A stretch of 64,000 nt of DNA. Source: an uncultured Actinomycetes bacterium. Its GTDB lineage: Bacteria > Actinomycetota > Thermoleophilia > UBA2241. This document shows positions 39,080 through 40,483 of the stretch, in pieces. A program made the translations under genes and the position numbers. The notes beneath the pieces are model-generated. The model did no database searches. It was given only the letters and a program-made list of their open reading frames with translations, and was not told where the DNA came from. Every line of letters starts with the position of its first letter. The first letter of the stretch is position 1. The DNA lies in contig CAVPVX010000006.1 of the NCBI GenBank assembly GCA_963709345.1, positions 1 to 64,000 of the forward strand, read 5' to 3'.

Positions 39080-40483
39080 GTGATGCCGGTGGATGCAGGG
39101 AACGCGAAGATCCCGACGCGCATGGGCGACGGCTTCATGGTCGAGATGACCTGCGCCGAGCTGCGCGCCGACCTCGAGGAGGCAACGCAGGAGGCGGCGC
39201 GCAAGGCCAAGGCGCCGCCGCTCTCCCAGGACGAACTCGACCATCTCCTCGACATCTATGCCTCGCGGGCGGCGTTCACCGCCGTCGACATCGGCGACCA
39301 GGTGGTCCTCAGCTGCGACGGCGGCGGTAGCAAGCTGACCGGCACCGACCTGCTCGACCTGCTCGAGAGCGAGCAGCGCCTCGGCCAGGACATCCTTGAG
39401 CTCTGGCACATCGAGTACAGCTACAAGGCGATCAAGACCATCCTGCCGTTCCAGCAGCAGGTGATGCAGAACGTCCAGCTCATGTGCACGGCCCCGGTGC
39501 AGTACGGGGCGCAGCCGAACCTCGCCTTCTACAGCAAGCCCGACGGTCCGGCCGGCAACTTCTTCGAGATGTTGCCGCGCGGGGACATCGCCGGGGCGCG
39601 CGCCGCTATGGAAGAGGCCATGGAGCACGCCACCAAGGACTTCATCTATGTGGGCGAGGGCATGCTCGACGCCGGCGCTGACGGCATGGACTTCGACACC
39701 ACCGGCGGCGCCGGCGACGCCGACTTCTTCAGCACGCTGCGCGCCGTGAAGCACCTGCGCGAGAGGTACCCCGACGCCGGTATCGAGGTCGGCATGGCCG
39801 GCGAGTTCGTGATCGGCGTGCACGGCGAGCTCGAGTGGGATGGCAGGCGACTCGCCGGCCTCTGGCCGAGGGAGCAGCTCGAGCTTTGCCAGGACGCCGG
39901 CGTCACCATCTTCGGGCCGGCGGTCAACATCCGCACGGGCAGGAGCTGCGCCTGGAACGCCGCGTACTCGATCACCGCGATGAAGCCCTGCATGGATGTC
40001 GCGCGTATCCCGGTCCACCCGAACGTGGGGCAGGGGGTCTGCGGTGTGCCCGTCAACGGCTACCCGGGCGAGGACGCCTCGTCGCGGGCGGCCAAGGCAC
40101 ACGTCGATCTGCTGCGCTGCGACGGGTTGTAGGTGGGCTCGGGTGACTCCAGAGGCATGGACGTCACCCACGCGCTCGCCGCGGGCATGGGCGGGATGCG
40201 CACGGCCGGAGACCTGGTCGCGCGCATGCAGATGGCCCGCGGGATGCGCCTCGAGCCGGCGAAGCGGTACGTCGCCGGCAAGCTGGGCTGCACGGTCCGC
40301 GACCTCAGCGACAGCTGCGCGATGGAGCAGATCCGCGGCGAGAGGGGTCTGGGGAGGATCCTCGACCACTCGAACCTGCACCCCGGCGAGCCCAACGCGA
40401 TGATGGCCAAGTTCCGGATCGCCGAGCTGCTGGGTGTGCCGATCAGCTCGGTGGAGCGGTTCCGGGAGCTGGCAGGGATCTGA
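39080..40483 (+). CDS. mtbB: Pyrrolysine-containing dimethylamine:corrinoid methyltransferase (467 aa, in-frame TAG at 40130-40132 = codon 351)
   Basis: TRMGDG, YSYK, PN...Y.KPDGP, FDTTG.AGDADF, GMAGEF and FGPAVN; the junction DGL-[TAG]-VGSGD..GM...H..A.[15 protein letters not shown] is the MtbB Pyl context. Confidence 0.93.

Follow-up and report, generated by a model that had tools for sequence, protein, structure and literature searches.

The first 64,000 nucleotides of contig CAVPVX010000006.1 (assembly GCA_963709345.1, forward strand; this whole stretch is called the window below), from an uncultured bacterium of the Thermoleophilia (Actinomycetota), carry mtbB, a gene for a methyltransferase of the dimethylamine:corrinoid (MtbB) family that is interrupted by one in-frame amber codon. 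The comparisons described below point, with a probability of roughly 0.85 for the reading as a whole, to a real MtbB-family gene on a Thermoleophilia chromosome that has the amber at the pyrrolysine (Pyl) position of the family, is intact and of the expressed type, and whose UAG (40130-40132) is probably decoded as Pyl to yield a pyrrolysine-dependent methylamine:corrinoid methyltransferase. The Pyl decoding, the specificity for dimethylamine and the downstream pathway are inferred.

Translation of the plus strand revealed a single open frame from 39080 to 40483 with just one stop inside it. Counted from the GTG at 39080 this TAG is codon 351, it lies in the context DGL-TAG-VGSGD, and readthrough gives a product of 467 amino acids that ends at a TGA (40481-40483). 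The open frame, the DGL-TAG junction, the in-frame continuation, the length and the codon number had been given in a preliminary description made from the sequence alone, and all of them were reproduced. Judging from the position of a Shine-Dalgarno-like GGAGG, translation more likely begins at GTG 39089 (8-nt spacing) or at ATG 39083 than at GTG 39080; residue numbers would then differ by one to three, with no other consequence. The window has a G+C content of 69.9% and long spurious open reading frames (ORFs) are frequent in it; genes in the window and in the related loci were called from the phase of third-position G+C (GC3). A scan of 38850-40700 for sigma-70 promoters and terminators found nothing. 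The 467-residue product matched the Pfam dimethylamine methyltransferase profile PF09505 from end to end (residues 12-463 on positions 4-462 of 463; E = 3.2e-150, 501.2 bits, cutoff 25) and the NCBIfam model TIGR02368 over residues 13-463 with 371.1 bits (equivalog cutoff 369.1), which bears out the family identity proposed earlier. Both models were presumably built on the MtbB of Methanosarcina. When the fragments of relatives were mapped on TIGR02368, the piece before the TAG covered positions 7-355 and the piece behind it positions 357-464; the two pieces flank one profile position and, therefore, the TAG sits on the position reserved for pyrrolysine. The segment downstream of the TAG is, as had been claimed, the C-terminus of MtbB.

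The amber is also conserved among relatives. Of the 8000 candidates scored in a search of 5.8 billion proteins, 433 matched, and among the 120 matches listed none spanned more than 75% of the mtbB query, indicating that gene callers halt at the same place; the clean homologues ended at DG[L/Y] in 12 of 12 cases. A scan of species-representative genomes found 259 loci that encode mtbB relatives. The best 80 of these 259 (L001-L080), with flanks to +/-10 kb, were kept for comparison, and all 80 belong to the actinobacterial clade. A motif search for the Pyl site in these loci and the window yielded 119 sites, in 79 loci plus the window, all with TAG; sense codon, TGA and TAA were each found zero times. 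Mapping of the site by tblastn placed 94 of 102 copies directly at a TAG and the other eight shifted by indels. The amber is thus a clade-wide trait, kept by all 118 copies in the best 80 of the 259 loci. In a library of representatives at 50% identity, 572 proteins matched with E <= 1e-3, 72 of them with E <= 1e-30, and most alignments stopped at query residue 350. Nine representatives crossed residue 351: five frameshifted mispredictions, three short fragments (with Q, L or S) and one clean sequence. The latter, P0130 (463 amino acids, 34% identity), is a full-length MtbB-family homologue with Trp at the amber position, which hints at a non-Pyl branch within the family.

The 116 codons behind the TAG were then compared in the 42 copies that share a tail of this length, out of 48 in the orthologue class of the window gene. 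In 60 random pairs the ratio of nonsynonymous to synonymous substitution rates (dN/dS) was 0.148 for the tail versus 0.176 for the 100 codons before the TAG, and diversity in the tail at codon positions 1, 2 and 3 amounted to 0.086, 0.061 and 0.255, the third being three to four times the others. The low dN/dS and the third-position diversity indicate that the tail is translated in the mtbB frame. As judged by these comparisons, purifying selection acts on the two halves of the frame as on a single gene, and no copy in the clade departs from the amber.

A second amber of this kind is present 3.5 kb upstream in a Pyl-type mttB, a trimethylamine methyltransferase gene of an unrelated family, likewise at the Pyl site. 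Of the 37 N-terminal MttB fragments from the related loci, 36 ended in TAG, and Pyl fragments of mttB were present in 36 loci. A narrow regular expression for the MttB Pyl site gave 22 matches (21 TAG, one unrelated), and the cluster count of 36/37 is preferred. The argument that two ambers at the Pyl sites of two unrelated enzymes are neither chance nor error therefore holds: both halves are in register, the TAG recurs in every mtbB copy and the amber of mttB is real.

According to the mechanism that we propose, the UAG of mtbB would be read as pyrrolysine by means of a tRNA-Pyl(CUA)/PylS pair that, like PylBCD, is presumably encoded elsewhere in the genome, and decoding would be a competition between Pyl-tRNA and release factor. 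The Pyl side chain would bind and activate dimethylamine (DMA), and a cognate corrinoid protein would take up one methyl group on its Co(I); a second methyltransferase would then hand this group to a carrier of the folate type. In concert with the Pyl-type MttB encoded upstream, MtbB would demethylate trimethylamine (TMA) via DMA to monomethylamine (MMA) in a non-methanogen. The preliminary description had put the stepwise demethylation of TMA to DMA more firmly and had suggested a search for mtmB and a methyl sink. In the window, that search detected neither mtmB nor a second methyltransferase of the MT2 type; and since Pfam and NCBIfam scans of the called genes in all 64 kb also gave no corrinoid protein and no RamA, the claim is toned down here to a possible route.

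The lack of these partner genes from the window is one of several points that weigh against the reading as Pyl-dependent dimethylamine methyltransferase. Furthermore, ARAGORN found no tRNA in the window, one with a CUA anticodon included, and no CUA tRNA within +/-10 kb of the 80 related loci. Pfam and NCBIfam scans of the called genes gave no pylS, pylB, pylC or pylD in the window. ORFs from the related loci were clustered with mutual coverage required, and NCBIfam models detected no pyl gene in 90 of the 91 representatives of clusters with at least two members, nor, at E <= 1e-40, in 150 of the 154 singleton ORFs of 200-520 amino acids, singletons of other lengths (202 of 356) being left out. 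Since these scans found no Pyl machinery in the window or in the flanks of the 80 loci, the case for Pyl decoding in this genome is indirect. TAG is also a true stop in these genomes. With fragments of Pyl genes excluded, it terminates 11 of the 47 genes called in the window and, in conserved clusters, 144 of 698 genes, or about 21-23% of ordinary genes overall. Back-up stops are not enriched behind it (a further in-frame stop follows at a median of 48 codons past TAG versus 56 past TGA). Even mtbB itself ends in TAG in 45 of the 118 copies, with the next in-frame stop at a median of 36 codons beyond; the window copy has TGA. UAG is therefore ambiguous in this lineage and not reassigned, and Pyl insertion would compete with termination genome-wide. 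An ambiguous UAG is described for methanogens in the accessible part of PMC12626013 (PNAS 2025). The predicted structure is a further point. A search of the PDB by sequence returned no match at E <= 1 and, thus, no MtbB-family protein with a solved structure. The AlphaFold2 model, built from 28 sequences, is of moderate confidence (pLDDT 74.7, pTM 0.80) and has alternating strands and helices; confidence is low for residues 73-130, 319-329 and 354-363, and residue 351 lies in a short strand that leads into a low-confidence loop. Foldseek found no match in the PDB at E <= 1e-3, its weak matches were TIM barrels (such as 3ieb, 5dmn and 1umy) with a TM score of about 0.2, and the model appears compatible with a TIM barrel but is uninformative.

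The last point against this reading concerns the substrate. The TIGR02368 score clears its cutoff by 2 bits, which is borderline, and there are at least seven lineage-specific subfamilies, of which the window protein represents one; the assignment to dimethylamine is, therefore, not secure. A tree of 99 full-length copies, calculated with FastTree and carrying SH-like support only, placed the window mtbB inside an orthologue clade of 43 rows (support 100) with L001, L037 and L008 as its nearest neighbours, whereas the other 56 copies fell into at least six further subclades that are 52-61% identical to the window protein. A 20-kb locus holds one mtbB copy in 61 sources, two in four, three in ten and four in five. 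Of the alternatives that were considered, a Pyl-containing MtbB-family enzyme that acts on another methylated amine fares best; it is unlikely in our view, but it would agree with a family that has diversified in the Thermoleophilia into well-separated subfamilies with a mutual identity of 52-61%, often within one genome and with up to four copies per locus, with the narrow margin of the TIGR02368 score and with a window in which no cognate corrinoid gene was seen. It is less easily reconciled with the full-length match to the dimethylamine methyltransferase models, with the retained catalytic context DGL-O-VGSGD and with the conserved pairing with a Pyl-type MttB, the enzyme that would yield DMA.

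Near-cognate suppression, in which a canonical aminoacyl-tRNA reads the UAG and residue 351 is an ordinary amino acid instead of pyrrolysine, would account for the lack of Pyl machinery in the scanned window and flanks, and the Trp of P0130 suggests that the fold is possible without Pyl. Under such a mechanism, however, sense codons would be expected at the site in some copies, yet TAG is invariant across subfamilies as different as those described above, and two unrelated enzyme families keep it at their known Pyl sites. Moreover, PylSc is documented from the class: Guo et al. (2022, PMC9630628) counted two Actinobacteria among 81 bacterial genomes with PylRS, and the part of their supplement that was available lists PylSc from a 'Thermoleophilia_bacterium'. 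Suppression is thus highly improbable. A literature search yielded no report on pylS in Actinobacteriota and no relevant one on pyrrolysine in Thermoleophilia.

Hardly more can be said for a split gene, in which translation stops at the TAG, a C-terminal chain of 116 residues is initiated at the GTG next to it and both chains then associate. Gene callers of public databases do predict two ORFs, and GTG follows the TAG in 41 of the 48 copies of the orthologue class, the window counted. The other seven have GTC or GTA as this codon, and in some paralogues it encodes Ala or Ile (DGY*AG, DGL*IG), so that a re-initiated, separate C-terminal protein is no general explanation. Further, no Shine-Dalgarno-like motif precedes the GTG, where the sequence reads ...TGCGACGGGTTG TAG, and the site is exactly the Pyl position of the family. 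A pseudogene, or a stop due to sequencing or assembly error, would look the same in a single sequence but is refuted by the comparative data, with the same TAG in 119 of 119 independent copies, low dN/dS on both sides of it, no frameshifts and the same feature in mttB.

Returning to the UAG as a pyrrolysine codon, the RNA behind it was analysed for conserved structure. The Rfam family PYLIS_2 matched at the TAG of mtbB (Table 1), and PYLIS_3 (RF02510) matched mttB at 36648-36747, with the first base of its TAG as the first base of the match. Helix 1 of PYLIS_2 found no support in this clade: seven of its positions were flagged as non-standard pairs in the window, and in 28 diverse natural sequences 54.9% of cells were paired. 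The paired percentage of the whole two-helix model was equalled by 71 of 500 shuffles. RNAalifold, in contrast, predicted one 11-bp hairpin (alignment columns 69-96, i.e. 40198-40225). Its pairing (95.8% of cells versus 84.1% in shuffles) and its number of cells with double changes (29 versus 9.0) were each reached by 0 of 500 shuffles and its covariation score was 0.308 versus 0.094, figures that call for some caution, as the alignment on which they were measured had also yielded the structure and its sequences are related; slid controls paired at 29-49%. The four varying pairs all connect third codon positions, and one of them pairs a Met/Ile/Leu/Phe codon with a synonymous Arg codon. The window copy folds with -24.7 kcal/mol (z = -2.9). 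We regard the conserved hairpin as real; with 66 nt between it and the UAG, it lies too far away to contact the ribosome that decodes this codon. A 'relatively canonical' structure is reported for mtbB in the passages available from Theil Have et al. (2013, PMC3639795).

The gene shares with archaeal MtbB (Methanosarcina) the end-to-end profile match, the single in-frame UAG at the Pyl position, the DG-x-O-x-G-x-GD context and the conserved region that carries the RNA hairpin. Unlike archaeal MtbB, it is found in an actinobacterium with 70% G+C and not in a methanogen, it has no adjacent mtbC, mtbA or pyl genes, and it scores as close to the equivalog cutoff as described above; the likeness was judged through profiles. 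The nearest precedent is a study of 2023 (PMC10805028) in which, according to the passages accessible, Actinobacteriota metagenome-assembled genomes (MAGs) express Pyl-encoding mttB and mtbB genes that are truncated at the amber codon and transcribed. They belong to the same phylum and have the same pair of Pyl genes, and the window gene is, thus, not new in kind. The argument from rarity in the preliminary description is dated by these MAGs. Those passages do not describe Pyl machinery, expansion of paralogues, TAG usage or a hairpin. Bacterial Pyl users in the Firmicutes and Deltaproteobacteria, for example Acetohalobium, Thermincola and Desulfosporosinus, are named in the excerpts from PMC3639795; like the clade of the window they have Pyl methylamine methyltransferases while UAG stays a stop, but they belong to other phyla, and pyl genes and tRNA-Pyl were identified there, whereas none were seen here in the window or the flanks. 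Non-Pyl MttB proteins and the Trp-containing P0130 have the same folds with a sense codon at the site, in contrast to the window mtbB and its 118 relatives.

Three findings go beyond what was found in print: how far the family has expanded in the Thermoleophilia, how heavily the same genomes and genes rely on TAG as a true stop, and the covariation that supports the hairpin. The window mtbB adds a well-documented example of an expanded genetic code, from a soil actinobacterium of high G+C content, and a lineage in which TAG is also a true stop offers a natural system to study an ambiguous codon in bacteria. If the proposed pathway operates, Thermoleophilia would take methyl groups from tri- and dimethylamine without forming methane and would rival methylotrophic methanogens for these amines in soils and peat. 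A bolder picture, which we put forward as doubtful, is that the Thermoleophilia are a large, barely described Pyl-decoding lineage in which the radiation of MtbB has produced seven or more subfamilies that differ in their amine substrates, UAG is ambiguous on one mRNA (Pyl inside, stop at the end) and the hairpin is a cis element that favours Pyl insertion or otherwise controls expression.

Table 1 Features of the mtbB region and companion genes in the window (positions are those of the 64,000-nucleotide stretch).
Feature	Position	Strand	Evidence or remark
mtbB, MtbB-family (dimethylamine:corrinoid) methyltransferase gene	39080..40483	+	PF09505, TIGR02368; 467 codons from GTG 39080
GGAGG, Shine-Dalgarno-like	39076..39080	+	read in the sequence 5' of the candidate mtbB starts; putative function
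Proposed pyrrolysine codon of mtbB	40130..40132	+	TAG at the Pyl position of the family, 119/119 copies
116 codons behind the TAG, conserved MtbB C-terminal region	40133..40480	+	dN/dS; TIGR02368 positions 357-464
Rfam RF02509 PYLIS_2 (mtbB) match	40130..40229	+	60.5 bits, gathering score 36; starts at the TAG
RNA hairpin, 11 bp, one bulge, loop AGAC	40198..40225	+	starts 66 nt past the UAG; extended PYLIS_2 helix 2
Pyl-type mttB (trimethylamine methyltransferase)	35643..37136	+	TAG 36648-36650; PF06253 E=1.3e-98; TIGR02369 707.5 bits vs 525
Non-Pyl MttB-superfamily paralogue, 477 aa	16599..18032	+	PF06253 E=1.3e-62, residues 4-472; no internal TAG
Membrane-anchored repeat protein	37207..37911	-	interleaved with mttB, mtbB
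Membrane-anchored repeat protein	37914..38954	-	interleaved with mttB, mtbB
Membrane-anchored repeat protein	40495..40986	+	interleaved with mttB, mtbB
Membrane-anchored repeat protein	46962..47957	-	interleaved with mttB, mtbB

The relatives of the window mtbB come almost all from Thermoleophilia MAGs. The best 80 loci are labelled Thermoleophilia (64), Actinomycetes (8), Actinomycetota (6) and Deltaproteobacteria (2, from one MAG). The mtbB copies of the two loci with the last label, L025 and L069, nest within Thermoleophilia clades, L025 as sister to L009; probably their contigs are mis-binned or the MAG is mislabelled. The window otherwise contains ordinary chromosomal genes (purL/F/D/A/B, aroA, ddl, sufBCD), and for a stretch exceeding 20 kb its gene order agrees with that of the orthologue loci, with suf genes, mttB and mtbB, an oxidoreductase of the DAO family, a sigma factor of the ECF type and aroA. 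An operon form was found with other subfamilies in L061, L063 and L067, where a TetR gene is accompanied by mtbB(Pyl)-mttB(Pyl)-corrinoid protein-non-Pyl MttB. Corrinoid proteins adjoin mtbB paralogues in eight of the 80 loci and ABC transporters adjoin others; the corrinoid protein of L067 (12912-13538) scored 194.5 bits with TIGR02370, below the cutoff of 215.3.

Four proteins encoded between and around mttB and mtbB combine a hydrophobic anchor at the N-terminus with a repeated motif, WP.NPWTG...G.Y.Y, and are kept in 38-43 of the 80 loci. They had no Pfam or NCBIfam match and are, judging from their sequences, probably envelope or secreted proteins. As membrane-anchored repeat proteins they were rejected as novel partners of the Pyl enzymes. 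A DAO-family FAD-dependent oxidoreductase (42259-43668, minus strand), a relative of aminophosphonate, sarcosine and glycine oxidases, is encoded near mtbB in 32 loci and the window; it could act on the amine product, or its presence may be mere synteny.

A tRNA that recurs upstream of one mtbB paralogue subfamily is a canonical tRNA-Thr(UGU). It is located 0.3-2.7 kb upstream of copies with the motif DGY/F-TAG-[A/V]GTGD in 11 loci (L049, L050, L051, L052, L054, L056, L057, L059, L066, L070 and L075) and could serve as a conserved landmark or as a site of integration. The non-Pyl MttB paralogue of the window, which is preceded by a LuxR-type regulator (15491-16201), terminates in TAG, and readthrough would append about 135 residues. 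Near the start of the window, a sulfatase and a radical-SAM/SPASM gene (3908-6743, minus strand) resemble an anaerobic sulfatase-maturase pair and lie beside a SulP/STAS sulfate permease (1000-3537).

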